Virus record (IMG/VR): IMGVR_UViG_3300011008_000007
DNA: 64,000 nucleotides
Reading direction: 5' to 3' (one strand)
DNA from: a virus
Lineage: Duplodnaviria > Heunggongvirae > Uroviricota > Caudoviricetes
Positions within the stretch are counted from its first letter, which is position 1, and every line of letters starts with the position of its first letter. Below, in pieces: positions 36,326-61,729 of the stretch. Both the position numbers and the translations under genes were made by a program. Under the pieces are notes generated by a model. The model worked only from the letters and a program-made list of their open reading frames with translations, was not told the DNA's origin and made no database searches.

Positions 36326-36401
36326 GCGCCATTAGCTCAGTTGGTAGAGCACTCGGCTTTTAATCGAGGTGTCCGGAGTTCGAGCCTCCGATGGCGCACC
36401 A
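36326..36401 (+). tRNA. tRNA-Lys(TTT)
   Basis: Acceptor GCGCCAT/ATGGCGC, D-arm TAGCTCAGTTGGTAGAGCA, anticodon loop CTTTTAA, T-arm CGGAGTTCGAGCCTCCG, CCA. Confidence 0.75.
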
Positions 36402-36590
36402 TTAAAGCACTAACAGCAAAATTATATAATAATTTAGGGTACAATTAATTATTTAAAGTGCTTTGAAAAGACGCGCACAGCAGTTAAATACATAATAATT
36501 TTGTTTTTGTTTTCTCATATGTTATTTACTCCTTTTAAAATATAGTGTTGATTGTAAGCGTCTTGACAAAAAAAGAAAGGATTTTGTATT

Positions 36591-38165
36591 ATGTCATTTT
36601 TTAACGAACTTAGAAAGAACATTGATGAGATTAATAATCTCCAAAAGACCGAAAACGGAGCAGTAGGTTATAAAACTACTGGCAAGAAGTTGTTGGATAT
36701 GAACTTCTCGATTCCCAAGTACAGAAAGGCAAATGAGGCTGAAATTATAGCCGATTTTGAACAGTCATTTAACGAGAACGAGATTCTTGCTATTCTTTGG
36801 ATGTTTTTCGCAAGAGATGTTCGTGGCGGACTTGGCGAAAGAAGATTATTCCGCATTTTATTCAACTGGTTTTGCAAAGAGCACACCAAGTATGCAAAAG
36901 AGTTGCTTGAATGTGTAGCAGAATATGGTCGCTGGGACGACCTTGTTAAAGCTACGGACAACACTCCTGTATGGGATGATGCGGTAGTGCTTATCAAAAA
37001 GCAGCTCACAGAAGACTTATTGAATTTTGAGGCTTCTAAAAGTATCTCACTTTTGGCTAAGTGGCTTCCGAGTGAAAGGACTTCAAGTCAGAAAACGAGA
37101 ATCCTTGCCCGCAAGTTAGCAAAGGCGCTTTCAATCAACATTGCTGATTATAACCGCATTTGTGTTAAGCTGCGCAAGTATCTTGATGTAACTGAAATCA
37201 AGATGAGCGCAAAAGAGTGGGAGAATATCAATTATTCTACGGTTCCTTCGGGCGCAAATGTAAAGTACAACAATGCTTTTCTGCGCAATGACGAAGAAAG
37301 ACGCAGAGCATATTTGGAGTCTTTGAAAAAGGGCGAAACTAAAATCAATGCTTCTGCTTTGTTCCCACACGACATTGTACATAAGTATAGCAAAAATTCT
37401 TATTGGCACGGTTCAGTAGGCTCATATGACGAAGCTCTTGAACAGTTGTGGAAGGCTCTTCCCGATATGGGCGGACTCGAAAACACGATTGTTGTTGCCG
37501 ACGGCTCTGGTTCAATGACTTGTAGAGTTGACCCAAATAGTACAACTTCTGCGCTTGAAGTAGCCAATGGTTTAGCTTTGTATTGTGCTGAACATTGCAA
37601 GGGAGAATTTAAGGATAAATATATCACATTCTCATCCAGACCTCAGTTTGTAGATTTGAGCAACAAAATCTCACTACACGACAAATTGGCTGAGGCTTAC
37701 AGACACGACGAGTGTTCAAATACCGACATCCAGGCTGTATTTGACCTTATACTCCATACTGCAACTTCAACCAATGCCAAACAAGAGGATATTCCTAAGA
37801 CTATTCTTATTGTTTCCGATATGGAGTTCGATGCCGCAACAAGTACAGGCGGTTGGTATGGTTCATCATCTTCTCTCACTCCGTCACTTTTTAAAGTAAT
37901 TGACAGAAAATATAAGGAAGCAGGTTATCAGTTGCCGCGCCTTGTATTTTGGAATGTAAACTCTCGCACAGGCACAATTCCAATGAAAGAGAATGACCTT
38001 GGAGTAACTTTGGTTAGTGGCTTCTCAATTTCGATTGTGCAGATGGTGCAGAACGGCGAAACCGACCCATACCTCAATCTTGTCAAGGTTCTTATGGGAG
38101 ATAGATATATGCCCATTTGTGCAAAATTACTCGGAAATACATTTAATAAGGAGAACTACAAATGA
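36591..38165 (+). CDS. vWA-domain protein, Ro60/TROVE-like (Rsr-like) candidate
   Basis: MIDAS motif VVADGSGSMT about 300 aa in; C-terminal blocks (IVSDMEFDAA...LPRLVFWNVNSRTGT...LGVTLVSGFS) co-linear with the Ro60 vWA region; about 520 aa like Ro60. Confidence 0.45.
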   Translation: MSFFNELRKNIDEINNLQKTENGAVGYKTTGKKLLDMNFSIPKYRKANEAEIIADFEQSFNENEILAILWMFFARDVRGGLGERRLFRILFNWFCKEHTKYAKELLECVAEYGRWDDLVKATDNTPVWDDAVVLIKKQLTEDLLNFEASKSISLLAKWLPSERTSSQKTRILARKLAKALSINIADYNRICVKLRKYLDVTEIKMSAKEWENINYSTVPSGANVKYNNAFLRNDEERRRAYLESLKKGETKINASALFPHDIVHKYSKNSYWHGSVGSYDEALEQLWKALPDMGGLENTIVVADGSGSMTCRVDPNSTTSALEVANGLALYCAEHCKGEFKDKYITFSSRPQFVDLSNKISLHDKLAEAYRHDECSNTDIQAVFDLILHTATSTNAKQEDIPKTILIVSDMEFDAATSTGGWYGSSSSLTPSLFKVIDRKYKEAGYQLPRLVFWNVNSRTGTIPMKENDLGVTLVSGFSISIVQMVQNGETDPYLNLVKVLMGDRYMPICAKLLGNTFNKENYK

Positions 38166-38995
38166 GTAAGAATTACAGCGAATTTGACAAACGAATGAAA
38201 AAATATGAGTTTGTCACAAGAACACATTTGATGACACGAACTCCTGCTATTATTAGAATTGACGGAAAGGCTTTCCATACGTTTACAAAGGGATTTAAAA
38301 AGCCTTTCGACGAAGTTCTGCAAAACAGTATGCAGGAAACAATGAAGTATTTATGTGAGAATATCCAGGGATGTGTTCTTGGATATGCGCAGTCTGATGA
38401 AATCACTTTGGTTTTGACAGATTATAAGACTCTCGAAACTTCGGCTTGGTTCGATTATAACATTCAAAAGTGCGCAAGTGTTGCGGCAAGTATGGCGACT
38501 ATGGCATTTAACAGAGCATTCCGCAAGAATGTTTTTGACTGGATGGAAGCTAATAACCCCGAAGATAAGTCTAATAATGAAGAAACTATAGCATACCATA
38601 ATCAGTTCGGTTCATATAACGCAGCATTTAATAGGGGAGCTCTATTTGATGCAAGGGTATTCAATATTCCCAAAGAAGAAGTTTGTAACAACATTCTTTG
38701 GCGCCAACAAGATGCTATCAGAAATTCTATCCAAATGGTAGGACGTTCATTCTATTCCGACAAAGAGCTTTTCGAGAAATCCACAAAGGATATTCAGGAA
38801 ATGTTATCTACGGACAAGAAAATAAATTGGGCTGAGGATTATCCTATTAGATTTCAGCGTGGTAGTTGCTGCATTAAGAAGTATGATGAGAATACCGGTC
38901 ATAATGAGTGGGTAATTGATAATGAAATCCCTATTTTCAAAGAAGAGGGAAGAGCATATATTGATAATCTTGTATTTTGCGGCGAAAATTTATAA
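38162..38995 (+). CDS. Thg1-like protein (tRNA-His guanylyltransferase family / 3'-5' polymerase)
   Basis: IIRIDGKAFHTFTKGFKKPFDE ... VLGYAQSDEITLVL matches Thg1 catalytic blocks (RxDGxxFHxF, xKPxDxR, YGQSDEYSF). Confidence 0.65.
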   Translation: MSKNYSEFDKRMKKYEFVTRTHLMTRTPAIIRIDGKAFHTFTKGFKKPFDEVLQNSMQETMKYLCENIQGCVLGYAQSDEITLVLTDYKTLETSAWFDYNIQKCASVAASMATMAFNRAFRKNVFDWMEANNPEDKSNNEETIAYHNQFGSYNAAFNRGALFDARVFNIPKEEVCNNILWRQQDAIRNSIQMVGRSFYSDKELFEKSTKDIQEMLSTDKKINWAEDYPIRFQRGSCCIKKYDENTGHNEWVIDNEIPIFKEEGRAYIDNLVFCGENL

Positions 38996-39036
38996 ATAAA
39001 ACTTGCATTTTATTTATAAAACTATCTAAAAAATTA

Positions 39037-39065
39037 TTGACAAATCAATAAAAATATGCTATAAT
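39037..39065 (+). promoter_or_regulatory. promoter TTGACA-N17-TGcTATAAT
   Basis: Hexamers 39037-39042 and 39060-39065. Confidence 0.55.
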
Positions 39066-39157
39066 ACAGTTGTAATGAGGGCGAGGGTAAGTTTAACAAC
39101 TCAAACTCCCTCGCCTTTATTGGAAATAATAAACCTATCAATAAAATTAGAGGAAAT

Positions 39158-39343
39158 ATGTATTATAAATTTATTTGTCCAAAGTGCGGAAAGCATATTG
39201 AGTTACAGATACCGATTTCACAATATAGTTCGGAAGGGCATTTTTGTGAATGCGGAGCCGAATTACAACGTGACCCAAGCGACTTCTGTACAAACAGTAA
39301 AAGGAATATAGATGGATTCTTCGGAACGTCAACCAAAAGTTAA
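39158..39343 (+). CDS. small zinc-ribbon protein
   Basis: CPKCGK...CECGAEL pairs; RBS AGAGGAAA. Confidence 0.4.
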   Translation: MYYKFICPKCGKHIELQIPISQYSSEGHFCECGAELQRDPSDFCTNSKRNIDGFFGTSTKS

Positions 39344-39346
39344 TAT

Positions 39347-39429
39347 GCGGGTGTGGCGAAATTGGCATACGCGCGAGATTTAGGTTCTCGTGTTTCGGCG
39401 TGCAGGTTCAAGTCCTGTCACCCGCACCA
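39347..39429 (+). tRNA. tRNA-Leu(TAG), type II
   Basis: Acceptor GCGGGTG/CACCCGC, anticodon arm CGAGA-TTTAGGT-TCTCG, long variable region, CCA. Confidence 0.6.
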
Positions 39430-39627
39430 AAATATAAGACACATACAGCAATCAATACATAAATTTGGCTCAAACTTTTAATTTGAATACCTTTTTATAG
39501 TGTCTTGGAGTATAAATTCCTTTCATTTTATAAATAAGGCGCACACAGCGATTTTACAATGGATTAATAAAAGCTCTTGAAAAGTTTTTTAGAGGGTTCA
39601 AGTCCCTCAACCGCGTCTTGAAATATG

Positions 39628-39703
39628 CACCATTAGTACAATCGGTTAGTACAGTCGGCTGATAATCGACAGACTGTGGTTCAAATCCACGATGGTGTAC
39701 CAG
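39628..39703 (+). tRNA. tRNA-Ile(GAT)
   Basis: Acceptor GCACCAT/ATGGTGT (G1-U72), D-stem GTAC/GTAC, anticodon loop CTGATAA, T-arm TGTGGTTCAAATCCACG, CCA. Confidence 0.6.
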
Positions 39704-39749
39704 TGTGTTTGATTTAGCACACAAATTCAATCGTTTTATTATTTTTTTC
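39704..39749 (+). terminator. intrinsic terminator
   Basis: Hairpin GTGTGTTTGATTTAGCACAC followed by T-tract TTTTATTATTTTTTT. Confidence 0.55.
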
Positions 39750-39799
39750 ATAAGAAAAATATCTGTTGCTTGCTGTCCGGTTTAAAGCAACAGGTATAT

Positions 39800-39894
39800 G
39801 GCAGCCTAACCCTAATTGGTAAGGGAGTAGTCTTGAAAACTACCAGTAATCGCCGAGAGGTGGTGTCTCGGTTCAAGTCCGAGGGCTGTCGCCA
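39800..39894 (+). tRNA. tRNA-Ser(TGA), type II
   Basis: Acceptor GGCAGCC/GGCTGTC, anticodon arm GTAGT-CTTGAAA-ACTAC, long variable arm, T-arm CTCGGTTCAAGTCCGAG, CCA. Confidence 0.65.
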
Positions 39895-40569
39895 ATGACC
39901 TGATGGCGCGTCAGGACGGTTTGGGATTAGCCCATCACAGCCGATACCGTAAAAACAGAAGACCTCTCAATAATAAAAGTATTAACTGGATTATTGAAGT
40001 CGCCCACCTGTTCCAAAGTCGGTGTTTAAAATAGATAGTCAATGTTGCGAATATAGACGGGGCAATTTTCATATAAGCAAGATGAACTCAATAGAGAACC
40101 CATCGGCAAAGTCCTCGTTAGCCACCTCCGCGGGCACTGCTTCTATGGCTGATGGTGCCTATTGACTTCCATATAAACGAGAAGAACGCAACTCTCTGTT
40201 CGGGTCGAAATGATATATACCCGTTCGGTGCTGATACCTATCAGACGGTTATATGGCGTTACACTCCTACCAATACGATAAATTGGGGAAACACAATAGG
40301 GAGAAGAATAATGAAAGCACATTACAACAAGCAATTTTCAAACTATGGACGATTGATTGTGCATTCGGTGTGGTTGCATTTATCATAGGGCACAAATTGC
40401 GACAATTAAATAATTAGTTGGAAGAAAAGGGCGAAAAAGACATAAGCTATGACTTCCCGATAATCTTCAAGGTGTGGACGTGGTGTTGGCTATGCAAACC
40501 AACTGATAGTGTTTAGGCATAGAGTAGAAATTATCTCTTCCAGCTAATTGTTTTGATTGTTTTAGATAT

Positions 40570-40655
40570 GCGGGTGTGATGGAATTGGCAGACATAAGGG
40601 ACTTAAAATCCCTTGGGTTTATCCCGTATCAGTTCGAGTCTGATTACCCGCACCA
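40570..40655 (+). tRNA. tRNA-Leu(TAA), type II
   Basis: Acceptor GCGGGTG/TACCCGC, anticodon arm AGGGA-CTTAAAA-TCCCT, variable hairpin, T-arm ATCAGTTCGAGTCTGAT, CCA. Confidence 0.65.
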
Positions 40656-40743
40656 AAGCAAGAATATTATAATAAAGTTTATACCCTTTGCGGGTCTTAT
40701 AAAAAAGTTTTAATTCTTGCACAGACACAGACAGCAAACCTTA

Positions 40744-40813
40744 AACGAATTAGTCAAACGGTAAGACACACCTCGAAACGGTGCAATTGTGGGTTCAACT
40801 CCCATATTCGCAA
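40744..40813 (+). pseudogene. degenerate tRNA-Phe-like element (anticodon loop TCGAAAC, C33)
   Basis: T-arm GTGGGTTCAACTCCCAT and anticodon GAA-like loop, but only 5 bp of acceptor pairing and C at position 33. Confidence 0.3.
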
Positions 40814-40839
40814 AGCGTGTCTGGAAACAATTGAATATG

Positions 40840-40967
40840 AGGGGTATAGCTCAATTGGTAGAGCGCTGTAATTTTTCAGTATCTTGCAAAAGATACATAC
40901 AGCAAACCATTACATAAAATAATGCTTAGGGAGCCAGATGTTACAGGTTCGAGTCCTGTTGCCCCTC
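40840..40967 (+). ncRNA. atypical tRNA-like gene 1 (128 nt; Ala-like 5' half; internal Cys-like TTGCAAA hairpin)
   Basis: Canonical acceptor AGGGGTA/TGCCCCT, D-arm AGCTCAATTGGTAGAGC and T-arm ACAGGTTCGAGTCCTGT, but about 77 nt between them. Contains hairpin GTATCTTGCAAAAGATAC + ACAGCAAACC. Confidence 0.45.
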
Positions 40968-40975
40968 GCAAATAT

Positions 40976-41097
40976 GCCGGTGTAGCCCAATGGTAGAGCA
41001 GCGGACGCATAATGTGTCTTGATTTAGAAAACACTTGCAGCAATTAAGCGGTCAAGAAAACCGTGTGTTGGAGGTTCGATTCCTCTCCGCCGGCACC
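40976..41097 (+). ncRNA. atypical tRNA-like gene 2 (122 nt; Thr-like ends)
   Basis: Acceptor GCCGGTG/CGCCGGC-A-CCA, D-arm TAGCCCAATGGTAGAGC, T-arm GGAGGTTCGATTCCTCT. Central insert with outer helix CGCATAAT/ATTAAGCG, hairpin GTGTCTTGATTTAGAAAACAC + GCAGCAATT. Confidence 0.45.
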
Positions 41098-41100
41098 AAA

Positions 41101-41220
41101 TGGGAGCGTAGCTCAGTTGGTAGAGTAATAGTAATGAAAAGTTGTCTTGTAAAGACAATAACAGCAATCTATTAAGTTCCAAACTATGTGTCGCAAGTTC
41201 GATTCTTGTCGCTCCCTCCA
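41101..41220 (+). ncRNA. atypical tRNA-like gene 3 (120 nt). Equals tRNA-Gly(TCC) if a 43 nt insert between positions 31/32 is removed
   Basis: Acceptor GGGAGCG/CGCTCCC-T-CCA. With the insert AATGAAAAG-TTGTCTTGTAAAGACAA-TAACAGCAAT-CTATTAA excised, anticodon arm ATAGT-GTTCCAA-ACTAT. The insert itself holds a Tyr-like hairpin TTGTC-TTGTAAA-GACAA. Confidence 0.5.
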
Positions 41221-41223
41221 TAT

Positions 41224-41363
41224 GGGGATGTAGCTCAGTCGGTTAGAGCAGCGTTAAAATTTATTAAGTGTCTTGTTTGTAAAGATACACCCAGCAATCT
41301 TATTTTAATGAAGAAAATAGCTTGTTAAGCCGCAGGTCGTAGGTTCGAGCCCTACCATCCCCA
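41224..41363 (+). ncRNA. atypical tRNA-like gene 4 (140 nt). Resembles tRNA-Asn(GTT) with a 66 nt insert 5' of the anticodon loop
   Basis: Acceptor GGGGATG/CATCCCC. 3' half ...TTGTTAA-GCCGC-AGGTC-GTAGGTTCGAGCCCTAC is Asn-like. Insert has outer helix TTAAAAT/ATTTTAA, hairpin GTGTCTTG...AAAGATACAC + CCAGCAATC. No CCA encoded. Confidence 0.45.
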
Positions 41364-41376
41364 CTCTCCTTTATTA

Positions 41377-41461
41377 GGGCGGGTCGCATAGTGGCAATTG
41401 CGGTGGGCTGTAAACCCACTTCGGTAACGATTCGTAGGTTCGAGTCCTACTCCGCCCACCA
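41377..41461 (+). tRNA. tRNA-Tyr(GTA), type II
   Basis: Acceptor GGGCGGG/TCCGCCC, anticodon arm GTGGG-CTGTAAA-CCCAC, variable arm, T-arm GTAGGTTCGAGTCCTAC, CCA. Confidence 0.65.
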
Positions 41462-41545
41462 AACCCTTTTGTGGCAATCTAAGTCAATATCATAAGATGT
41501 GAGTCCATAATAAATTATTCCTTGCTTTGGGTACAAGGAAAACAT

Positions 41546-41619
41546 ACAGGGTATGGTGTAATGGTAACACACTACATTTGGGATGTAGGGTCGCGGTTCA
41601 AATCCGATACCTTGTGCCA
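41546..41619 (+). tRNA. tRNA-Pro(TGG) (weak T-stem)
   Basis: Acceptor ACAGGGT/ACCTTGT-G-CCA, anticodon arm CTACA-TTTGGGA-TGTAG; T-stem has only 3 clean pairs. Confidence 0.45.
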
Positions 41620-41738
41620 GTCTGTGAAAGCAGACCAAAGGTACTGACATATTCACCTATCAAGTGGTGGGGCAAAACCCTACTACGAAAGAAGTTGGGG
41701 GAACTTCTATAAAAAACCCCGTCCAATCCTATTTATAT

Positions 41739-41825
41739 GGGAGCGTGGTGGAACTGGCAGACACGCGGGACTCAAACTCCCGCGCCGTTCGCGGCGTATG
41801 GGTTCAAATCCCATCGCTCCCACCA
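41739..41825 (+). tRNA. tRNA-Leu(CAA), type II
   Basis: Acceptor GGGAGCG/CGCTCCC-A-CCA, anticodon arm CGGGA-CTCAAAC-TCCCG, variable hairpin GCCGTTCGCGGC, T-arm ATGGGTTCAAATCCCAT. Confidence 0.7.
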
Positions 41826-45039: not shown

Positions 45040-45736
45040 AATGAAAAAGAAAAAGAATACAGAAACATTTAATGAAATGGTTGGATTAAAAATTATTGTT
45101 TCAGATGAAATCTTAAAAAGAAAAGCTCGAAAATACCGTGAGCTTGCAGGAAAGCAAGGCATTATTCATAGTGTATGGGAAGATAATATGGGTATTGAAA
45201 TTGAAAATGAACGAAATAATTCTTCTTCGTTCGGATATTTTTATTTGAAGTCAAACGAGTTTTGTATTTTAAATCAAAAAGATAATGAAATAAAAGGAGC
45301 AAATGAAATGAGTGTTAATAATTACAATAATTATAAGGGCAATTACAAAATAGCAAAAGTTAGATTTTTAGATGGTAATTCAGAAATTACATATCGCATT
45401 TATAATGATGGATTTCAGTATGATATTGATACTATTGTTGTCGTGAAACCCGCAAATCATTGTATAACGATTGCAAAAATAATTGATATATATGATTCTG
45501 AAACAGATGTGGATTGCAGTTGTGATAGAGAAATAGTTTGCCCCGTTGATATGAGCAAATATACTGAGCGCAAAGAAAAAGCAAAAGAAATTGTTAAGTT
45601 GAAGAAACAAATGGATGAAAAAGTTAATGAATTACAGGGAGTTGCACTTTATGAGTTAATGGCGCAAAACTCACCTGAATTAAGAGAAATGCTCGATAAA
45701 TTTACTCAATTAACGCAATCCAACAAGGAAAAATAA
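45032..45736 (+). CDS. hypothetical protein
   Basis: ORF with SD. Confidence 0.45.
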   Translation: MSKMKKKKNTETFNEMVGLKIIVSDEILKRKARKYRELAGKQGIIHSVWEDNMGIEIENERNNSSSFGYFYLKSNEFCILNQKDNEIKGANEMSVNNYNNYKGNYKIAKVRFLDGNSEITYRIYNDGFQYDIDTIVVVKPANHCITIAKIIDIYDSETDVDCSCDREIVCPVDMSKYTERKEKAKEIVKLKKQMDEKVNELQGVALYELMAQNSPELREMLDKFTQLTQSNKEK

Positions 45737-45737
45737 T

Positions 45738-46339
45738 ATGAATTATTACATATCAGACACTCATTTCGGTCACGCAAACATCATCGGGTTCGATAAACGT
45801 CCTTTTCAAAACACATTAGAAATGGAAGAGAAGATTATTGAGAACTGGAACAAGAGAGTAACTAAAGACGATGTGGTTTACATATTAGGTGATTTTTGTT
45901 GGGGTACTGAAAAAGAGTGGTTACGGATTCTCGATTTGCTTAACGGTGAAAAGTTTTAATTAGGGGAAATCACGACATAAAAAGTCCTTCAGCTCAATTA
46001 AAAAAGAAGTTTAGGCAAATTTGTGATTACAAAGAAATTACCGATTGTCGCAAACGCATTATTATGAGTCATTATCCCAATCTGTTCTATCGAGCAAGCT
46101 ACGGAGATAATACTTGGCATTTTTGCGGACATACTCATAATAGAACCAACGAAGAATCGAAAAGACGGAAATATGTTTGGGATTTGGTTACAAGCTGCCG
46201 CGAGGACTCTGACAATAGAGGTCATATTATCAACGTCGGATGTATGATGGATTATATGGATTACACTCCGCGAACTGCGGACGAATTAATAAGCTGGTGG
46301 AAGCAATATTATGTTGTTGACGACCAAACATTCGGTTAA
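45738..46339 (+). pseudogene. calcineurin-like metallophosphoesterase interrupted by a -1 frameshift near 45950
   Basis: Frame 0 gives MNYYISDTHFGHAN...ILGDFCWG then stop 45957. Frame -1 continues ...IRGNHD...MSHYPNL...FCGHTHN (GNHD and GHTH motifs). The junction lies in a homopolymer run GAAAAGTTTTAA. Confidence 0.5.
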
Positions 46340-52784: not shown

Positions 52785-54789
52785 ACAGATAAAAGATTTA
52801 ATTGAGCGCCTAAATAAATATAGAGATGCTTATTATAATGATAATCAATCTTTAATTTCCGATATGGAGTATGATAGTTTATACGACCAGCTTGTTGAAA
52901 TGGAAAATAAATATGGAGTGATTATGTCAAATTCTCCAACCCAAACAGTAGGCTATGATGTTGTTAGCGAGCTCAAAAAAGTAAAGCATAACCATCCTTT
53001 ATTGTCATTGGCTAAAACAACTGAGATTACCAAATTTGTTGATTATTTCCGCAATCAAGGAAATATGCTTCTTATGGCAAAGTTGGATGGTCTTACTTGC
53101 TCTTTATATTACAACAATGGTGAACTCGTGCGCGCTGAAACCCGTGGCAATGGCGAAATCGGAGAAGATATTACTCATAATGCAAAAATGTTTTCTAATA
53201 TTCCGTTACACATTGATTATAAAGATGAGTTAATTGTTGATGGTGAGTGTATTATCACAACAGATGAGTTCGATAGAATCAATGAGAGAGAAAATACACA
53301 ATACAAGAATCCGCGCAATTTAGTTAGCGGTACTGTTAGGCAGCTCGATAATAAGGTGGTAAAAAATCGTAATGTTCAATTCCTTGCTTGGAAGCTATAT
53401 TCAATGGGTGAGGATAAGAAAATAGATTCGCATTATCGCAGATTGTTTGCCCTAAGCAACCTTGGATTCGATATTGTTCCTTGTGATTATTTTGATACAA
53501 AGGTAAACCCAATCAATAATGAGAGCTGTCAATTGGGAATTGAAATAATTAAAGAGAAGTGCAAAGTTCTGAATACGCCTATTGATGGTATTGTTGGAAT
53601 GTTCGATTCTAAATCTTATGGCGATTATCTCGGCAAAACTGGACACCATCCTCGACACTCTCTTGCATATAAGTTTTACCAAGAAGAGAACGAAACCACA
53701 TTGACCGATATTGAGTGGTCAACGAGCCGAACAGGTTCAGTCAATCCTGTGGCAATTTTTGAACCAGTTGAAATTGACGGAACCACAGTTTCGAGAGCCA
53801 CACTTAACAATGTGAGTTGCATAAAAGAACTCGAATTGGGTATTGGAGATACAATTACTGTAATAAAGTCTAATCAGATTATTCCTATGGTCACACAGAA
53901 TTTAACCAGAAGCAACACATATAAGATACCCTCGGTTTGCCCTTGTTGTGGCGAGCCTACTGTTATCAAAAATGATAACGGACGAGAAATGCTTTATTGT
54001 GTCAATAAAGATTGTGCAGCAATTTTACACGATAGAATTGCGAATTTTGCGGCAAGAAACGGAATGAATATAGTTGGTATTTCTGAGGAACGCTTAAAAA
54101 TATTGATTGACAATGGTTATATAAAATGTTTTAAAGACTTGTACCATCTTTATGAACATAAAGACGAAATAGTAGGTCTTGACGGTTTTGGTAAAAGTAG
54201 TGTTGATAACATTTTAAAAGCCGTTGAGGAAAGTCGTAAATGCACATTAACCAACATTTTGGTTGCAATAGGAATACCCAATATCGGTAAATCTACAGCA
54301 AAAACTATTTCCGAGCATTGCGAAAAGAAATATATAGAAGATTCGGATATTTACAAGAATCCATTTGATTATTTTTTGAGCTGTATTGAGTATCGGCAGA
54401 ATTGGAGCAGTTTGCCAGCAATTGGTAAATTGACAAGTGAAGTAATAAACAATTACGTTGAAGAAAATATTTTTGATATATATGACCTTCTATACGAATT
54501 AGAGGTTGAATTGGAGTTTGTTGATTCGGATTCCAAGCAAAAGCCTTTTGCTGACAAGTTGTTCTGTATCACAGGTAAACTCAATTACTTTACAAATAGA
54601 AATGCTTTGATTGAAGAAATTGAAAAATTGGGTGGCAAAGCTACTTCGTCGGTTACTTCTAAAACAGATTATTTAATAACAAATGATAAAGATAGTGGTT
54701 CAAGTAAAAATAAAAAAGCGCAGCAATATGGCACAGAAATAATTTCTGAGGATGAATTTATAAAACTATCTAAAAAATTATTGACATAA
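52765..54789 (+). CDS. ligA: NAD+-dependent DNA ligase
   Basis: N-terminal LigA Ia domain (YRDAYYNDNQSLISDMEYDSLYDQL), adenylation KLDG lysine motif, Zn finger CPCCGEP...C, C-terminal BRCT (FCITGKL...YLITND). ATG 52765 in frame of track ORF 52696. Confidence 0.85.
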   Translation: MIELYVEQIKDLIERLNKYRDAYYNDNQSLISDMEYDSLYDQLVEMENKYGVIMSNSPTQTVGYDVVSELKKVKHNHPLLSLAKTTEITKFVDYFRNQGNMLLMAKLDGLTCSLYYNNGELVRAETRGNGEIGEDITHNAKMFSNIPLHIDYKDELIVDGECIITTDEFDRINERENTQYKNPRNLVSGTVRQLDNKVVKNRNVQFLAWKLYSMGEDKKIDSHYRRLFALSNLGFDIVPCDYFDTKVNPINNESCQLGIEIIKEKCKVLNTPIDGIVGMFDSKSYGDYLGKTGHHPRHSLAYKFYQEENETTLTDIEWSTSRTGSVNPVAIFEPVEIDGTTVSRATLNNVSCIKELELGIGDTITVIKSNQIIPMVTQNLTRSNTYKIPSVCPCCGEPTVIKNDNGREMLYCVNKDCAAILHDRIANFAARNGMNIVGISEERLKILIDNGYIKCFKDLYHLYEHKDEIVGLDGFGKSSVDNILKAVEESRKCTLTNILVAIGIPNIGKSTAKTISEHCEKKYIEDSDIYKNPFDYFLSCIEYRQNWSSLPAIGKLTSEVINNYVEENIFDIYDLLYELEVELEFVDSDSKQKPFADKLFCITGKLNYFTNRNALIEEIEKLGGKATSSVTSKTDYLITNDKDSGSSKNKKAQQYGTEIISEDEFIKLSKKLLT

Positions 54790-54810
54790 ACTATAAAATA
54801 CGCTATAATA
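54782..54810 (+). promoter_or_regulatory. promoter TTGACA-N17-TATAAT
   Basis: Hexamers 54782-54787 and 54805-54810. Confidence 0.5.
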
Positions 54811-54989
54811 CAAGAAGTGACAAAGAAATTTTCTTTTTAACGTCATTCATCCTTAAAATCCCCCTAAAATAGAGTCTTTGATTTTTTAGCAAGTGACAAT
54901 TTTGTTTCTTGATATTCTAAAAATCCTCTAAAATAGAGGGTCAGAATGTCAATAAAAAGAAAATTTTATGTAGACAAGGACTAAACGTT

Positions 54990-55841
54990 TTGAGTCTATG
55001 TGATGGTATGAGCGGAGGACAAATTGCCCTAAAAGAGCTTGGCATTCCAATCAACAAATATTTTTCTTACGAAATTAAACCATCTGCAATCAAAGTCACT
55101 CAATTGAATTTTCCGAATACAATACAATTAGGTGATGTGCGCAATTTTGATATAAGCGATTTACAGAACGAAGATATAGATTTGTTTTTATGTGGTTCTC
55201 CTTGTCAGAATATGAGCTTGATTAATATTACCGGCAAAGTCGGAGTTGATGGTGAAAAATCAAGTTTGATTTACATATGTGCCGATATTTTCAAAAAAGT
55301 TAAACCAAAGTTTTTTCTATTTGAAAATGTCGGTTCTATGACGAGAGCTGATAAAAAAGTATTTAACCAACTAATTGGTTGTGAGCCGATACAAATTAAT
55401 TCTTCATTGGTTTCAGCCCAAAAACGCAATAGACTCTATTGGACTAATATACCTTGCGACATTCCGCAAGACCGAAAAATATTACTTAAAGATATTTTAG
55501 ATGAAAATCCACAAAGAGAAGAGAAATGGTCAGACAAGAAAAGGGCTTTTGTAAATCGTAAGCGAAGCGGAACTATGTATGTGCAGGTTAATGGTGAAAA
55601 ATCAATTCCCATTACAGCTCGTGGATATGCTGCGTGGAACACTCAGTTTATTGAAGATAAAAATGGATTAAGAGATTTAACCACAAATGAATACCGTAAA
55701 TTGCAGACTGTGCCAGATTGGTATAATTTTGGAGATTTAAGAAAATCAGCTATAACAAATTTGATTGGCGATAGTTGGACGATTGAAGTTATCGTTCATA
55801 TTTTTAAGTATTTACAAACCTATCACAAAAATTATAGTTAG
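54990..55841 (+). CDS. DNA (cytosine-5)-methyltransferase
   Basis: Motif I LSLCDGMSGG, IV GSPCQNMS, VI ENV, VIII QKRNRLY. TTG start; an out-of-frame ATG (54946, MSIKRKFYVDKD-stop) precedes it across an A-run. Confidence 0.65.
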   Translation: MSLCDGMSGGQIALKELGIPINKYFSYEIKPSAIKVTQLNFPNTIQLGDVRNFDISDLQNEDIDLFLCGSPCQNMSLINITGKVGVDGEKSSLIYICADIFKKVKPKFFLFENVGSMTRADKKVFNQLIGCEPIQINSSLVSAQKRNRLYWTNIPCDIPQDRKILLKDILDENPQREEKWSDKKRAFVNRKRSGTMYVQVNGEKSIPITARGYAAWNTQFIEDKNGLRDLTTNEYRKLQTVPDWYNFGDLRKSAITNLIGDSWTIEVIVHIFKYLQTYHKNYS

Positions 55842-55862
55842 GAGTATAGAGGCGCGGTTTAA

Positions 55863-56138
55863 ATGATTATTATAAAAAAAGGTAAGAGTGTGCAACAAGA
55901 AGAAAAATACTATAAAGCAGAATGTAATTGCGGCTGTGTGTTTGCATTTAAGGAAGAAGATTTTATTAGAATAAAAAACATAGGCTACTACAATATTGCC
56001 CAAAAAGCAAAAGTATTTCCTAAAGCTAATATATATATTAGATGCCCCGAATGCACACGAACTATTTTGAAAAAGAAGTGTATAGAAATCACTAATTCTC
56101 AATATAAAAAGGATTTGTTGAAATATGGTACTCAATAG
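55863..56138 (+). CDS. small zinc-ribbon protein
   Basis: CNCGC...CPEC. Confidence 0.45.
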   Translation: MIIIKKGKSVQQEEKYYKAECNCGCVFAFKEEDFIRIKNIGYYNIAQKAKVFPKANIYIRCPECTRTILKKKCIEITNSQYKKDLLKYGTQ

Positions 56139-56651
56139 AATTTGGGCGATGCCCAATAAGAATACTTTTAGCATAAAACCGATTAGGGAATTGATTGAAA
56201 AATATCTTCCTTCGGGGGAGATAAGAATATAGTTGACCCTTTTGCTAATGAATCTACATACGGAACTATTACAAATGATTTAAACCCAAGATTTGATACA
56301 GATTACCATATGGACGCCTTGGATTTCTTGAAAATGATAAGTAGCAATACTGCGGATATGGTTTTGTATGACCCACCATACTCTCCGAGGCAGGTTAAGG
56401 AGTGCTATGACGGAATTGGAGTAAAGGTTACGGCTGACGACACAAAGGCGTCCTGGAGAGCAAGGCATTTAGATGAGATTCAAAGAATACTAAAACCAAA
56501 TGGAATATGTATTAGTTTTGGTTGGAACACCAATGGTGTAGGTAAAAAGCGAGGGTTTGAAATTATTGAAGTATTACTTGTTCCTCACGGCGGCAGTAAA
56601 AACGATACATTGTGTACAGTAGAAAGAAAGGTAAATGATGTCAGAAAATAG
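56125..56651 (+). pseudogene. DPPY-motif (N6-adenine/N4-cytosine) DNA methyltransferase with a frameshift at a G5 tract (56214-56218)
   Basis: Frame 1: MVLNRIWAMPNKNTFSIKPIRELIEKYLPSGEIRI-stop. Frame 0 continues GDKNIVDPFANE...DPPYSPRQ. One extra G would restore LPSGGDKNIVDPF. Confidence 0.55.
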
Positions 56652-57633
56652 AACTATTCCTACTTCTAAAAATCGTTGGAACGTTAAGTTTGTTGGTAGC
56701 TCACATATCTGTAAAATATATGCTAATTCTGAGCAAGAGGTTTTTGATTTATTCAAGGACGAAGAAATTGAGAGTATTACTCCATTCGATGATTTCGGTT
56801 ATGTTGACTTAATTGAAACAATGAAAAACCATTCTAAACTGATTGGAAGCTATTCTATACGAAATGGCACAAAAGAAATTTATATGTACCCTTGGGGTGC
56901 GGATTGTGTAATTTTTAGATTATATAAAGATTTTGATGGCGGGTATTACGATATTGCAGAATACCAAGAGCGCGGCGGTCAGCTAATGGTTCCGATTACG
57001 TTCACCTATTCAAATCCCACAGATTTGTATGAAAAATATTTTAAAAATGAGATTGAGAAAGCGTTGTTAGATGGATTACTTTCTGCGAAAGAGCTAAAGA
57101 AAACCAAAGCAAAACTGTTTAGTCGCAAAAACGGAAATAAATTTTGGGTAGATAAAGATGGATATTTCTATGATTGCGAAAATTACTATTACCCAAATAA
57201 AGATAACAAAGCAGAATACAATGAATTTCACGACGAACCTAATGCAGTTTATGTAAAAGCTGACTATGCAGCGCCACAAGGAAGTAACACAGAGCTAAAG
57301 TGGTGGCACAGTTTAGATGATTTTCTTTTGGAGTTTTCCTTAAAAATAAAGAATGTTCCAGGCACATATGGTTCTTCTAAATATAAGGTGAAAAAGAGGG
57401 GCTATAAAAAATTGCCGCCAGAAGAGCGCAAAGTTATTTATAGATACCCTTATTTGAATATAGACAGACAATTAGATGAAGGTCATTCTCCCGAACATAT
57501 TGCAAATATTTGGGTGCAAATGCTGAATCCGAAGTATTTCCAATCGGGAGACGTGTTTGGTTTTGAAAGCCATATTTGTAATATGGTGAAATATTATCAA
57601 GATTATAGGAGTAAAAACGATGTTAATAAGTAA
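56635..57633 (+). CDS. hypothetical protein
   Basis: ORF, coupled. Confidence 0.5.
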   Translation: MMSENRTIPTSKNRWNVKFVGSSHICKIYANSEQEVFDLFKDEEIESITPFDDFGYVDLIETMKNHSKLIGSYSIRNGTKEIYMYPWGADCVIFRLYKDFDGGYYDIAEYQERGGQLMVPITFTYSNPTDLYEKYFKNEIEKALLDGLLSAKELKKTKAKLFSRKNGNKFWVDKDGYFYDCENYYYPNKDNKAEYNEFHDEPNAVYVKADYAAPQGSNTELKWWHSLDDFLLEFSLKIKNVPGTYGSSKYKVKKRGYKKLPPEERKVIYRYPYLNIDRQLDEGHSPEHIANIWVQMLNPKYFQSGDVFGFESHICNMVKYYQDYRSKNDVNK

Positions 57634-58675
57634 TGAGATAGTATTCAAAGGGCATCCAGACAAGGTTGCCGACCAAATAAGCGATGCTTTGCTTGACGCA
57701 TATCTATCAGAAGACCCAAATAGTCGCTGTGGAATTGAAGTAGTTGGCGGCAAAGGCAAAATATTTGTTACGGGCGAAGTTTCTTCCTCTGCTGAGGTTT
57801 ATGTTGAGGGAGTAGTGAAGTATGCTTTATGCAAAGCTGGTTATTACGAAGATTATGAAATAATAAATAATCTCGGAGTGCAATCACCTGATATTGCACA
57901 GGGAGTAGATACTGGTGGCGCCGGCGACCAAGGAATTATGATTGGTTTTGCCTGCAACGAAACAAGAGAAATGCTTCCAAAGGCACAGGTGATTTTGCAG
58001 GAATTTGCAAAACAGTATGATGAATTGCGCCAAAAAGACAAAAGATTCTTACCCGATGGCAAAGCTCAAATCACGGGCTATTACGATAATATTGATGAAA
58101 TTCTGAGATTAAGACTAATCGAAGAGTTTGTTATTTCCTATCAAAACACGGAGGAAGATAGGAAAGCAACAGACAAAATCATTATCAAAATGGCGCAAAA
58201 GATTTGTAAAAAATATGGAGTAGAAACCAATAAGAAAAAGTTTATTATAAATCCCACGGGCAAATTCTTAATAGGTGGTTTTCAGGGTGATGCTGGACTT
58301 ACAGGGCGCAAAATTGTTGTAGATAACTATCAAGCGTTTTCTTCTGTAGGTGGCGGGGCATATTCAGGTAAGGATTGCACAAAAGTTGACCGTTCTGCCG
58401 CATACAAGGCGAGGCAAGTTGCAAAGAGATATGTTTCTATGACAGGCGCCTCTTGGTGCAGAGTGTCGGTATCTTATGCGATTGGATTAGAAAAACCGAT
58501 GTCAATTCGTATCGAAACAAATAAAGGAGATATTTGTTTTAGAGATGAACTGTATGAGAGCTTTAAGCCAAAGAATATTATTGAAGACCTTGGGTTAAGA
58601 AAAGTAAAATATTATCCAACTTCTCAGTTTGGACATTATGGCAACAAAGAGTTCCCTTGGGAACAAATTAAGTAA
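57620..58675 (+). CDS. metK: S-adenosylmethionine synthetase (MetK-like)
   Basis: GHPDKVADQISDALLDA, GAGDQGIMIGFACNET, GGGAYSGKDCTKVDRSAAY, all matching MetK signature blocks. Confidence 0.7.
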   Translation: MLISNEIVFKGHPDKVADQISDALLDAYLSEDPNSRCGIEVVGGKGKIFVTGEVSSSAEVYVEGVVKYALCKAGYYEDYEIINNLGVQSPDIAQGVDTGGAGDQGIMIGFACNETREMLPKAQVILQEFAKQYDELRQKDKRFLPDGKAQITGYYDNIDEILRLRLIEEFVISYQNTEEDRKATDKIIIKMAQKICKKYGVETNKKKFIINPTGKFLIGGFQGDAGLTGRKIVVDNYQAFSSVGGGAYSGKDCTKVDRSAAYKARQVAKRYVSMTGASWCRVSVSYAIGLEKPMSIRIETNKGDICFRDELYESFKPKNIIEDLGLRKVKYYPTSQFGHYGNKEFPWEQIK

Positions 58676-58681
58676 AGGAAA

Positions 58682-59011
58682 GTGATTTATATGTTTGGTA
58701 AAAAGAAGAAGAAAGATAAGACAAGAACGCATAGGGTTTATGTAGAACTCGATTCCCATCAAAAGGTGGCAGATTTCACAAATGCTTGTAATTCTATTCC
58801 TGAGAATGTATTTTTACGCGGAGTAGATGAAAACGGCGTAGCGTGGGAAACCAATGCAAAGAGTTTATTGTTTAATTTGGCTATTGCAGGCATTTTGAAC
58901 GATAAGGAAAGAATAAACAAGGCGGCAAATGTTGCAAAAGTCGATTGGAACTCTGTTTATGTTGAGAGTGAAGCCGATATTTATGGCGTGCTGAAGGACT
59001 TTGCAAAATAA
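58682..59011 (+). CDS. hypothetical protein
   Basis: GTG 58682 or ATG 58691 after AAGGAAAG. Confidence 0.45.
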   Translation: MIYMFGKKKKKDKTRTHRVYVELDSHQKVADFTNACNSIPENVFLRGVDENGVAWETNAKSLLFNLAIAGILNDKERINKAANVAKVDWNSVYVESEADIYGVLKDFAK

Positions 59012-59114
59012 CGCAATCAAATATTATTTTTATTTATCATTTTTAAATAAAAACCCCTTATTTACTACGTTTTTTATTTCCTAATTTTGATTGACTGAAA
59101 TATTATTAGATTTG

Positions 59115-59140
59115 AAACCCTCTATTTTTGAGGGTTTTCT
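59115..59140 (+). terminator. intrinsic terminator hairpin AAACCCTC-TATTTTT-GAGGGTTT + T-run
   Basis: 8 bp perfect stem followed by TTTTCT. Confidence 0.5.
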
Positions 59141-59147
59141 TACCTAA

Positions 59148-61376
59148 TATGTCAATAAAAATAATAATTCAAAAGGATATGAATTAGTTAATTTTTGTGA
59201 GTTTGATAAATTTGCTGCGGCAAGTTATTGTGCAGTACATGGAGTAGACGAAAGCCTTAATCTTGGAGATATAACGAAGGTAGATGAAACTAAAATCCCG
59301 CCATTTAATATGATTTGCGGTGGGAGTCCATGTCAAGATTTCAGCGTTGCCGGCAAACAAGCGGGTAGCAAATGGAGATGTAAAGATTGTGGTCATGAGT
59401 ATAATCCTCTAACTGTTCATTTTTCTAAAAGGCACAAGTGTCCAAAATGTGAAAGCGAAGATTTGGATAAAAGTCGGAGTTCTCTATTGGTTGAATGGCT
59501 GAGAGTTATTCGCGCCAATAAACCCAATTGGGGAATATATGAAAATGTTAAAAATATTGTTGGCAAAAAGTTTGAAGATACTTTTAATATGTTTTTAGAT
59601 GAGCTCCACGAATATGGCTATAATACTCACTACCAAGTGCTAAATGCCAAAGATTATGGTATTCCTCAGAATAGAGAAAGAGTTTATCTAATTATTATTA
59701 AAAAAGAATTAGATAATGGTCAGTTTAAATTTCCCGAACCTTTCGATAACGGTCTGCGATTAAAAGATATGTTAGAAGAAGAGGTAGATGAAAAGTATTA
59801 TATTAATACCGAGAAATCCCAAGCCCTTATAAATGAGCTTATCGAGAGCGGTAAATTAGAAAAAGACGTTTCTAATTCCGTAAGGGTCGGGGGGAGAGGA
59901 AGTATAGACCGACATCAATGGGATATGGTTCAAGCGTGAAAACAGTAGGTTTTTTAGATAAAGGAACTGGTAAGCATCAATCCAATATGGTTTATGATAG
60001 CCTTGGTTTGGGTAGATGTTTAAATGCTTGCGATTATAAATCTCCGACTACTATTCTTGATTTAGAGGAATAAGATGTATTTATTTGCACAGGTTTTGAA
60101 ATATCAAAGAACCGAATATGGAAAGTCAATTCGTAAGGCTTATGAAAAAGGAATAATAAAAGAAAGACGCAATAATATGAGAGAATATGTCCCCCGAAAA
60201 GACGGAATAAGCAACACGTTGACTACCGTATTAAAAGATAATTACTTACTGATGAGAGAAGATGGCAGATAAAAATAATACTGTCCTCATAGGCAATGTT
60301 TACGGAAAACAATTCGGAACAGGATATGCCGGCAATGTGTGGGATAAAGAATACTATTGTCCGACAATCCGCACTTGCCAGGGGGAGGAAATCAACCGAT
60401 GGTTATTGTAAAGGAAGAAAGAAATGAAAAAAGGTAGTGGAATCAGGGTTATTGGTTCACTCAACCCACAAAAAGAAGTACAAGATAGAGTTCGCGTACT
60501 CTCGCCTGGGGGAGATGTCAATCTCTAAGGGCAACGGATTACAAAGACCCACCAAAAATTTTGGTGTTGGTTAAGGAGAAATCAAATGAGAACACCAATA
60601 TGTTTGTTGACTCCAAATAATTTTGCTCACAAAGCGGGTGACGGAACTAAAACCAGAAAGAGAGAGGTTAGATTTATTCATCCCGCGCTTCAAGCTAATT
60701 GCGGAGCAACACAAGCAACGTATTTATTAGAACGTTGGACGCAAGAAAAACATAAGGGAATTATTCAAATTGGTAATTTATATAAAGATAGACCTAATTT
60801 TTCAAACCCACAATGCGGCAGGGTTTATTCCATAGATGGGGTATCACCCACTATTAATACCTGTCAGGGGGAGAAAGACAACCTAAAATAGTAGTTCCTA
60901 TAAAAATAAAGGATGATTAGCATATGGTTATAAAACATACTGAGATACCTTGCTTCTTTGACGACAGAGATAAAGGCTGGGGGGAGAAGACTATGGACTA
61001 CTGCCCTACGCAAAGAGCTAATAGGAGTGGAATAAAAATGATAAATAATTCTGATGTTGGTTATAGGATTAGAAAGCTCACACCAAAAGAATGTTGGCGA
61101 CTAATGGGATTTTCGGACGAAGCATTTGAAAGAGCTGAAAATGCCGGTATTAGTAATACGCAGTTATATAAACAAGCCGGAAATTCAATAGTAACCAACG
61201 TGTTATATTACATATACAAAAATTTATATGAGGCAATGCCTTATTTATTTGATGATTTAAAAGTCAGCAGTTACTTTTCTGGAATAGGTGCTTTTGAAAT
61301 TGGATTGGATAGATTGTTTGAAGATATAAACAAAACAACGTCTTCCGGAGCAACAGATTTCGGGGGAGAGAAATAA
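59148..61376 (+). pseudogene. fragmented multispecific-type C5-cytosine methyltransferase locus. Motifs IV-VIII at 59148-59939, several TRD-like fragments, motifs IX-X at 60924-61200, then a motif-I fragment at 61250-61330
   Basis: In 59310..59939: GGSPCQDFS, ENV, QNRERVY. Repeated TRD cores: DGISNTLTT (60075..60272), YYCPTIRTCQGE (about 60355), GVSPTINTCQGE (60586..60891), CPTQRANRSG, then RIRKLTPKECWRLMGF...GNSIV (60924..61376). A further fragment GIAVCLTAQ lies at 61505..61705. All are in different frames separated by stops. Confidence 0.45.
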
Positions 61377-61729
61377 TTGTTTATGACGACTATAACAGTC
61401 GAGTTAGAGCCGACCAAAATACAATAGGCACGATTACCACTATGGTTGGCAGTTCGAGTTTAAGGTCATCATACAAGATAATAGAGAACGGAAAGGCAAC
61501 TTAAATGAAGAAAGATAAAAACTTCGGGGGGAGTTCAGAATCCAACATTCCTATTTTTCTTGGTGGTTTGGGTAAAAGAAATTTTGGCAAACAGTTTCGG
61601 CAAGGAAATAGGGTGTATAGCGCAGACGGCATAGCTGTATGTTTAACGGCGCAGCCTCTCGGTAATATTGGTGGGTACTCTTCTTTATATATTATTAAAA
61701 AATAATTTATAAACCTAACTATAAAATTG

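Follow-up and report, generated by a model that had tools for sequence, protein, structure and literature searches.

A candidate phase-variable methylation island with two inversion switches and eight G tracts in a large gut or rumen phage

The multispecific DNA cytosine-C5 methyltransferases (C5-MTases) of Bacillus phages SPR, phi3T, rho11s and SPbeta are phage anti-restriction enzymes in which one catalytic core carries tandem target recognition domains (TRDs) between motifs VIII and IX. Here, we compare them with a methyltransferase (MTase) island in a 64,000-nucleotide stretch (the window) of the Caudoviricetes record IMGVR_UViG_3300011008_000007. The island encodes two C5-MTases, a small amino-MTase with a DPPY motif and an S-adenosylmethionine synthetase (MetK). 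At a probability of roughly 0.68, we read it as a phase-variable anti-restriction methylation island in which two inversion switches and eight G tracts act on the three MTases. Similar to the SPR-type enzymes, intact relatives of the second C5-MTase have 3-5 tandem TRDs in one open reading frame (ORF), as in L004, L007 and P0016 (L and P numbers denote related loci and proteins). An initial annotation of the sequence had proposed alignment to SPR-type MTases, and motifs IX-X in the window are indeed 67-69% identical to those of SPR, rho11s and SPbeta. However, the TRDs of the window do not form one polypeptide between motifs VIII and IX; they occupy at least seven separate ORFs, and stops remain after frame repair. 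The family further differs from the SPR type in having motif I after motif X and a Zn-ribbon insert after motif IV, and the window lineage differs in being split into several ORFs, with G tracts in the TRDs and an invertible 5′ end.

Simple sequence repeats (SSRs) control the phase-variable MTases (phasevarions) of Helicobacter, Campylobacter, Haemophilus and Neisseria. In H. pylori MTases, the tracts range from G9 to G15 (PMC12003011). As in these bacteria, a G tract in the MTase ORF sets the reading frame in the island, and close relatives differ in whether they have the ON or the OFF allele. In contrast to the phasevarions, the island resides on a virulent-looking large phage, consists of orphan type II-like C5- and amino-MTases, and concentrates up to eight tracts in one array; the tracts of the window lineage are only G5-G6 and are always followed by AG.

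Inversion by Gin in phage Mu and by Cin in phage P1 varies host range. There, as in hsdS shufflons (PMC7672463) and intragenic inversions (PMC10028968), a segment flanked by inverted repeats alters translation when it inverts, a design that the island shares. Unlike these invertons, the island segments are only ~140-150 bp long and replace a type II-like MTase's first six codons together with its start codon; the tyrosine recombinase proposed for them lies 40 kb away, and two switches have one common core.

For the second enzyme's N- and C-terminal halves, the appropriate comparisons are the naturally split C5-MTase M.AquI and the engineered split or permuted forms of M.MpeI and M.SssI. Halves of split C5-MTases complement each other efficiently (PMC5944983). 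Unlike in M.AquI, the C-terminal half in the window also holds motif I, and TRD-only ORFs lie between the halves. Permuted C5-MTases of the M.BssHII type (type H) likewise place motif X before motif I, but their permutation falls within the variable region, with IX-X first, whereas the termini of the window enzyme fall between motifs I and II. Only variable-region permutations were found among natural C5-MTases in a 2018 survey of 20,677 REBASE entries (PMC5944983). Our full-text literature searches retrieved bacterial MTases controlled by SSRs and by invertons, and neither a phage-borne equivalent nor a description of the window-type permutation, an absence that is not proof of novelty. Phase-variable MTases are a textbook bacterial strategy; if our reading is true, the island puts the same logic on the phage side, with two mechanisms stacked on three MTases beside a phage S-adenosylmethionine synthetase.

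Relatives were gathered in two ways. The core of the second C5-MTase gene, used as a query, led to 66 IMG/VR loci, most of which have no G runs and one intact ORF of 513-557 aa. The permuted MTase is mobile cargo: the neighbors of the island are not conserved in these loci, which for this reason could not be compared with the window tract by tract. Close syntenic relatives (L149 and L232-L234) were reached through a protein collection. No match to the island turned up when it was compared by megablast with 50,697 phage records. All comparisons of tract length and orientation below are between assemblies, at the consensus level.

The window contains 16 runs of five or more Gs, and eight of them fall within the DPPY and second C5-MTase genes, whose 3.1 kb of coding sequence makes up 4.8% of the window (binomial P = 2.6e-7). 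AG directly follows all eight MTase tracts (G5-6AG), compared to none of the other eight runs in the window, and 10% of 316 G tracts from related loci. The rule holds within the lineage, at 6/6 MTase-associated tracts in L232, 7/7 in L236 and all four internal ones in cultured Ruminococcus sp. YE282. Elsewhere in the window, long ORFs spell Gly-Gly with a G5 run at just 3 of 51 dipeptides. The homopolymers lie inside ORFs, and their length sets the frame. At the five G5 copies (56214, 60381, 60508, 60867 and 61362), one additional G yields the reading that is contiguous in intact homologs; each repair is spanned by a contiguous alignment, with 60-87% identity across the repaired junctions. The G6 copies at 60979 and 61526 are already in frame.

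The small DPPY amino-MTase gene (56125-56651, + strand) is interrupted, and so OFF, at the G5AG tract 56214-56218. As first proposed from the sequence, one extra G restores LPSGGDKNIVDPF. The repair yields a protein of 175 aa that aligns end to end with phrog_11619, passing through the break (E = 1e-50), and is 80-84% identical to homologs of 166-170 aa. The tract is G5 (OFF) in the window and L149, G6 (ON) in L232, L233, L234, P0127 and P0128, and longer in L078 (G8), L152 (G9) and YE282 (G10). The window and L149 share the break; for the 140 codons past it, we obtained pS = 0.72, dN = 0.06 and ω = 0.026 with dS saturated; the other two frames gave ω above 2. At this ω, the DPPY gene is under strong purifying selection despite the break in both genomes and has therefore been kept functional over a divergence that saturates synonymous sites. 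We also considered whether GGGGGAG could bind ribosomes for starts further downstream and rejected this, as the DPPY gene has no canonical start before its essential VDPF motif.

The second C5-MTase gene is fragmented between 59148 and 61705. The initial annotation counted at least five frames, each with a TRD-like core. The cores it listed (GISNTLTT, CPTIRTCQGE, SPTINTCQGE, CPTQRANRSG and IAVCLTAQ) are present, and GRCLNACDYKSPTT, RCQSLRATDYKDPP and IGTITTMVG can be added, but the region resolves into three reading frames with at least nine segments, and six of the breaks are not due to homopolymers: at each, one ORF stops and the next starts with a Shine-Dalgarno (SD) sequence and ATG of its own. 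Both parts of the enzyme belong to PF00145 (N part, E = 2e-47; C part, E = 3.5e-13), and motifs IV (PCQ), VI (ENV), VIII (QxRxR), IX, X and I are distributed over two ORFs. The N-terminal subunit (59148-59939; this and all following modules are on the + strand) carries motifs II-III, IV, the Zn-ribbon insert, VI and VIII and closes with the tail VRVGGRGSIDRHQWDMVQA and a stop; tail and stop are conserved in L001, L049, L078, L079 and L149. Its G6AG tract (59889-59894) is a three-state switch. With G6, the ORF reads into the tail RGSIDRHQWDMVQA and stops ~17-20 codons past a conserved ..(R/V)xGGRGSxD(R/K)HxWD.. segment, as seen in the window, L149, L232, L001, L049, L078 and L079; with G7, the core runs on into TRD a, a fusion found in L236 and L252, the latter from Ruminococcus sp. 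YE282 (contig NZ_FMUV01000001.1).

Between the N- and C-terminal subunits lie modules a to E, each with its own SD and ATG. Module a (59918-60073; ..GRCLNACDYKSPTTILD) is in the -1 frame relative to the core and has cluster members P0279 and P0280, and module B (60075-60272; ..DGISNTLTTVLKDNYLL) is 63-88% identical to segments of intact homologs. Module C (60262-60437) is OFF through G5AG at 60381-60385; G6, the ON length present in YE282, would extend it to ..CPTIRTCQGGGNQPMVIVKEERNEKR, with 70% identity to P0046 across the tract. Similarly, module D (60424-60620) is OFF through G5AG at 60508-60512, and G6 leads to ..RVLSPGGRCQSLRATDYKDPPKIL, 60-62% identical to P0087 and P0120 across the tract. 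Module E (60586-60920) has two TRD-like halves; G5AG at 60867-60871 leaves it OFF at 101 aa, and G6 gives 111 aa, ending at a conserved TAG stop (60918). The C-terminal subunit (60924-61504) follows with TRD f (CPTQRANRSG), motifs IX and X and then motif I (FSGIGAFEIGL). Its first tract, G6AG at 60979-60984, is ON and its second, G5AG at 61362-61366, is OFF; G6 at the latter adds REIIVYDDYNS..IGTITT.. up to TAA 61502, with 71% identity to P0007 across the tract. Module G (61505-61705; ..IAVCLTAQPLGNIGGYSSLY) is ON through G6AG at 61526-61531, and in homologs P0010, P0011 and P0013 it stands after motif I or at the N-terminus. In L004 (7452-7760), L006 and L047, which have no G tracts, the main ORF ends in ..NPQAE and a stop, and a TRD stretch (..IYVYDDYNSRF..IGTITT..) goes on in the -1 frame without a start codon; the junction TAAGTTCTGCTTGTGG is conserved.

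Both the end of the N-ORF (..GGRGSIDRHQWD..) and the start of the C-ORF (M.I.KHTEIPCFFDD) are conserved across diverged phages, which argues that the split is architecture and not damage. The C-ORF has its own ATG, opening with MVIKHTEIPCFFDD.. in the window and MISTKHTEIP.. in L232 and P0253. By analogy with M.AquI, it is plausible that the N-ORF (motifs II-VIII) and the C-ORF (TRD, IX, X, I) assemble as one enzyme. In L231, the two parts are fused around a single TRD (..SNTIKAGEKTIDLCPTQ..), and since the join lies at the positions of the window's 59889 and 60979 tracts, this arrangement suggests that these are points of module insertion or loss. In several relatives, an intein (Hint_2 / Intein_splicing) interrupts motif IV of the permuted C5 gene (L149:2986-4770, L245, L248, P0010, P0011 and P0013), with the catalytic cysteine as its +1 residue (GGSP|C..intein..N|CQDFS).

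Tract states differ among relatives in both directions. L232 is ON (G6) at 56214 and OFF (G5) at 60979 and 61526, and the window is the reverse, with G5 at the first and G6 at the other two. Both are G5 (OFF) at 61362 and G6 at 59889. L149, which covers 56214 and 59889, is G5 and G6, respectively; L233 and L234 cover 56214, with G6. Across 16 further loci, the core-tail tract (59889) ranges from G5 to G8 and the module D tract from G5 to G7. In the 90% cluster of module E (63 members), the 111-aa ON form (ending ..TCQGGEREPKVIIPIKTKDN) occurs on at least 28 contigs among the 15 members listed, the 101/102-aa OFF form (ending ..TCQGEKENQK) on at least 38 contigs, and a 97-aa form represents a third state. 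The ON protein P0263 and the OFF protein P0266 have identical upstream sequence. The C-subunit cluster likewise contains 150-aa ON and 126-aa OFF forms, and a G7 tract in YE282 is OFF, so that OFF states lie in both directions from the ON length.

More distant loci vary at the same places. The equivalent Gly-Gly sites of L002 and L003 hold eight tracts in the range G7-G11, within which L078 also falls; L001 and L049 have G5-G7, and L078 and L079, from a phage with 55% GC, have G and C tracts of 7-9. Length variants separate near-identical assemblies: one G is the sole difference between L001 and L049 over 12.6 kb, G11 versus G6 at one tract is the sole difference between L002 and L003 over 6.7 kb, and G-tract indels account for 3 of the 6 differences between L078 and L079. 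A third MTase class also has a tract, an in-frame G8AGAAG at the FGGGG AdoMet motif of a Dam-like enzyme (MethyltransfD12) at L231:746.

The 5′ ends of both C5-MTase genes vary, or are predicted to vary, by a different mechanism. Switch 2 is a 151-bp invertible segment (59019-59169) bounded by inverted arms at 59019-59034 and 59154-59169 (16 nt, 94%). It is OFF in the window, and inverting it in silico places ATG ATA AAT AAA.. (MINKNNISKGYELVNFCEF) in frame with the core, in agreement with MINKNDNSKGYELV of L149. The opposite orientation exists in nature: a 148-bp segment of L232 (6620-6767), bounded by ATCATTTTTATT and AATAAAAATGAT, matches L149 and L234 at 98% in reverse (blastn). Overall, 11 loci are ON and 5 are OFF (the window, L232, L233, L242 and L243). 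Both orientations occur within one lineage (L237 ON, L242 and L243 OFF), and L236 (ON) and the YE282 genome (OFF) are mirror images. Two Logan contigs (L238:1 and L250:1) start exactly at the right arm of switch 2, and the YE282 contig stops inside its G10 tract in the DPPY loop (L252:5798-5807); breaks of this kind are expected at heterogeneous sites.

Switch 1 is a putative invertible segment of 141 bp (54826-54966) with arms at 54826-54848 and 54944-54966 (23 nt, 87%), the right of which holds ATGTCAATAAAAA. It precedes C5-MTase no. 1 (54990-55841, + strand; 283 aa), an enzyme of canonical motif order with a single TRD (PF00145, E = 4e-33; phrog_116). In the present orientation, the only starts are TTG 54990 and ATG 55008, the latter chosen in a twin assembly from the Joint Genome Institute (JGI). 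In-silico inversion brings ATG AAT GAC GTT AAA AAG.. (MNDVKKKILCRQGLNVLSLCDG..) into frame, with GGGGGA 8 nt upstream, and L232 has the same hidden start design with GTG. By these features, we infer that switch 1 inverts as well. The JGI twin contig was examined as a possible ON form of switch 1 and set aside, as only a different start had been called.

The two switches are the only inverted-repeat pairs at gene 5′ ends in the window. Both contain the 13-mer ATGTCAATAAAAA without a mismatch, and it has no further copy in the window; the window, L232, L236, L243 and YE282 all retain hidden in-frame starts within the repeats. The initial annotation noted an out-of-frame ATG ORF before each C5-MTase and attributed these ATGTCAATAAAAA ORFs to homopolymer frame breaks, across an A5/A4/T4 run in the case of C5-MTase no. 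1. The ORFs are real (MSIKRKFYVDKD-stop from ATG 54946 and MSIKIIIQKDMN-stop from ATG 59149), but they are arms of the inversion switches, and the A5/A4/T4 runs at both C5 starts lie within these arms and are not slippage sites. We had considered a single-base deletion at the start codons (an A lost from TCAAT, going by MSNK.. homologs), which the inversion evidence superseded, and an additional inverted-repeat partner at 60259-60280, which we judged to resemble the N-terminus of a TRD (P0069) by low-complexity coincidence. As the enzyme of both switches we conjecture a tyrosine recombinase encoded at 12410-13345 (+ strand), which scores 35 bits against PF00589, above the cut-off, and matches the phrog_216 integrase (E = 1e-24).

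The body of the second C5-MTase, which opens at 59148 without motif I, had been taken as truncated, and the in-frame FSGIGAFEIGL after motifs IX-X as the start of a new gene. Both features are present, but there is neither a truncation nor a second gene: the motif order II-III-IV-VI-VIII-TRDs-IX-X-I is that of a circular permutation conserved across the family. Intact homologs of 513-573 aa (L004, L007, P0016, P0079 and others) begin at motif II (..ELVNFCEFDKYA..), continue through IV, VI, VIII, several TRDs, IX and X, and end in ..MPYLFDDLKLSSFFSGIGAFEIAL... HMMER aligns residues 16-76, 110-228 and 475-526 of P0016 to M.HhaI 35-92, 94-211 and 270-316, and the C-terminal FSGIGAF of P0007 to M.HhaI 14-29. 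An AlphaFold2 model built with 107 homologs, evaluated outside the TRD region, has a predicted local distance difference test score (pLDDT) of 85-97 in the catalytic domain and 87-96 in the C-terminal strand 539-544 and helix 550-564; its best Foldseek matches are M.HhaI (probability 1.00) and M.HaeIII. At least 7,944 homologs score at or below 1e-8 (among 8,000 candidates listed, with the conserved motifs IX-X forming part of the query), and motif I is C-terminal in every family member whose sequence was read. None of the 50,697 phage genomes has a record that covers the C-terminal motif-I part. These results uncover a very large family of circularly permuted C5-MTases with a topology that engineering has shown to be viable and that is absent from the 2018 survey of natural enzymes.

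We propose that the phage supplies methyl donor through MetK to three DNA MTases, each behind a heritable and reversible switch. Inversion of the 141- and 151-bp segments would provide, in one orientation only, an in-frame ATG and a G-rich ribosome-binding site for the C5-MTases, and replication slippage would add or remove one G at Gly-Gly sites so that the DPPY and second C5 ORFs are complete or incomplete. The benefit could be bet-hedging between hosts with methylation-sensitive and hosts with methylation-dependent restriction. If so, phages hedge their epigenetic identity, trading shelter from classical restriction against exposure to methylation-dependent enzymes. With switch 2 OFF, switch 1 without a proper start and the DPPY gene OFF, the consensus genome of this assembly would be essentially unmethylating. 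Because cultured Ruminococcus sp. YE282 has the same array, the model is directly testable.

Several observations weigh against this reading. Having all three MTases OFF together also fits a decaying island. The window tracts (G5-G6) are short for classical contingency loci, which usually have at least 7-8 nt, and simple slippage does not predict the invariant AG 3′ of the tracts. Switching does not appear extremely fast, as seven near-identical pairs of the L235-L250 group differ by one tract change against 45 other differences, and the heterogeneity seen is that between assemblies. The opposite orientation of switch 1 was found in no relative examined, and its predicted ON proteins (299 and 313 aa) are absent from a collection of 15 billion proteins. 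Finally, modules a to E have no catalytic motifs and end at stops even with all tracts ON, so that per-TRD switching is conjectural. A tentative variant gives these modules more to do. As a combinatorial specificity generator, the array would complete or truncate one TRD ORF with each tract, the TRD-only products would act in trans with the split subunits, and together with the two inversion switches this would produce progeny with many methylation patterns; G5-6AG would then be a signal, for example for re-initiation or cassette exchange.

The initial annotation had left three explanations open: decay, phase variation and sequencing error. We favor phase variation because a tract that is G5 in one relative can be G6-G10 in another, and the differences run both ways. 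It is unlikely, though partly true, that the region is a graveyard of MTase fragments left by recombination and single-base deletions, with neutral polymorphism among relatives. Such decay would explain the six stop/start junctions away from the tracts and the truncated remnants of relatives: L231 has a C5 stub, the extension of L006 contains a stop, and a TRD stub lies at position 2958 of L232. It would also fit the OFF tracts of the window, L001 and L149, 9/9 of which are G5 and need one more G, with YE282 alone among the relatives examined having a +1 OFF state (G7), and the OFF state of all three MTases in the window. A gene outside the island is damaged too: as noted initially, a metallophosphoesterase near 45950 is broken by the loss of 1 nt. 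However, dead genes would not be expected to show ω of 0.026, and simple decay is disfavored for the DPPY gene because this value comes from comparison with a relative that has the same break. ON forms are as frequent as OFF forms, ORF boundaries with SD and ATG are kept across phages of 36% and 55% GC, and three MTase classes with no relation to one another (C5, DPPY and the Dam of L231) all concentrate G runs contrary to codon usage. The conserved hidden starts within the inverted repeats likewise speak against decay.

A constitutive -1 recoding at GGGGGAG, by ribosomal frameshifting or transcriptional slippage at a set ratio, appears improbable. All five G5 tracts of the window require a -1 shift, the G5-6AG motif is conserved 8/8 and resembles an SD sequence, and the phage encodes a tRNA-Gly(UCC); a fixed programmed frameshift was weighed after the diverged L149 proved to have the same DPPY G5 break. 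It was dropped because L232, L233, L234 and cluster members have in-frame G6 at these sites and no consistent RNA structure lies downstream (z = 0.25, 0.48, -0.36, -0.20 and -2.14). There is also no X XXY YYZ heptamer, and the codon phase differs between sites. Efficient transcriptional slippage is described at homopolymer runs of about 7-9 nt, and G5 falls below this length. We found nothing further in favor of doublet decoding by the tRNA-Gly(UCC). Even less probable is an assembly artifact, in which the true genes are continuous and G5 reflects homopolymer under-calling in a low-coverage metagenome. The coverage of just 11.4x, the fact that every correction adds one base, and contigs that end in tracts or repeat arms, where assemblers struggle, would be consistent with this. 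Yet the five coding G5 runs without AG all lie inside intact ORFs of 137-529 aa, and 54 A6 runs, 16 A7 runs and one A8 run in the window leave the other genes whole. Identical OFF proteins are found on at least 12 contigs from different studies and assemblers (SPAdes, MEGAHIT and Logan), alongside ON forms, and OFF forms also occur in the cultured Ruminococcus genome; moreover, under-calling does not account for inversion, stop/start junctions or permutation. A phase-variable island remains our preferred reading; annotation that does not regard orientation and tract length as states will file such loci under pseudogenes or assembly errors.

The window belongs to ENA contig ERZ3810914 NODE_9 (161,988 bp, the source of the coverage above), whose JGI twin assembly is 162,032 bp. 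The island is part of a ~162-kb phage, a large gut or rumen phage whose host is probably Ruminococcus or another member of the Oscillospirales, as indicated by Ruminococcus sp. YE282 and metagenome-assembled genomes of Clostridia, which have the same array. The window has 35.8% GC, with every long ORF on the + strand. Between an NAD-ligase gene on one side and a LemA gene on the other, the island comprises, in order, a promoter, switch 1, C5-MTase no. 1, a small Zn-ribbon ORF, the DPPY MTase, a 332-aa ORF of no assigned family, MetK, a 109-aa ORF, switch 2 and the fragmented C5-MTase; Pfam and PHROGs support the gene identities. The promoter (54781-54809, + strand) is a 12/12 match to the sigma-70-type consensus (TTGACA-17-TATAAT) and adjoins switch 1 on the outside. 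The phage MetK, recognized already in the initial annotation, lies at 57620-58675 (+ strand), contains the N-terminal, central and C-terminal S-AdoMet synthetase Pfam domains, would supply the methyl donor, and is syntenic in L149, L150 and L232-L234. The 332-aa ORF (56635-57633) has no relative in IMG/VR.

The window has 16 tRNA genes (31032-41825), among them the tRNA-Gly(UCC) at 35007-35082, which decodes the GGA and GGG codons of the tracts. A protein with the N-terminal domain of GmrSD, a type IV, modification-dependent restriction family, is encoded at 9887-10429, on the same phage as the three switchable MTases. The broken metallophosphoesterase, the only such gene noticed outside the island, is split into 45714-45956 and 45950-46339 at GAAAAGTTTTAA, and one added base rejoins ..NGEKVLIRGNHD... 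A diversity-generating retroelement occupies 18448-20928. Its variable repeat (19187-19268) lies at the 3′ end of the ORF 18448-19311, its template repeat (19704-19785) is 88% identical to the variable repeat with mismatches at template adenines, and an RVT_1 reverse transcriptase ORF lies downstream (19894-20928). At 11103-11304, five overlapping inverted-repeat pairs of CTTATATAA-like units form a palindrome nest that may be an origin or operator region. A 54-nt promoter-like element (..AAAAACTATTGACA..17 nt..TATACT/TATAAT) recurs at 14882-14935, 15468-15521 and 18554-18607. In relatives, a TnpB/Cas12f-like (OrfB_IS605) gene and a Cpn60 chaperonin gene are found a few kb 3′ of the MTase array (L236:14025-14336, L237:12930-14042 and L240:7408-8520).

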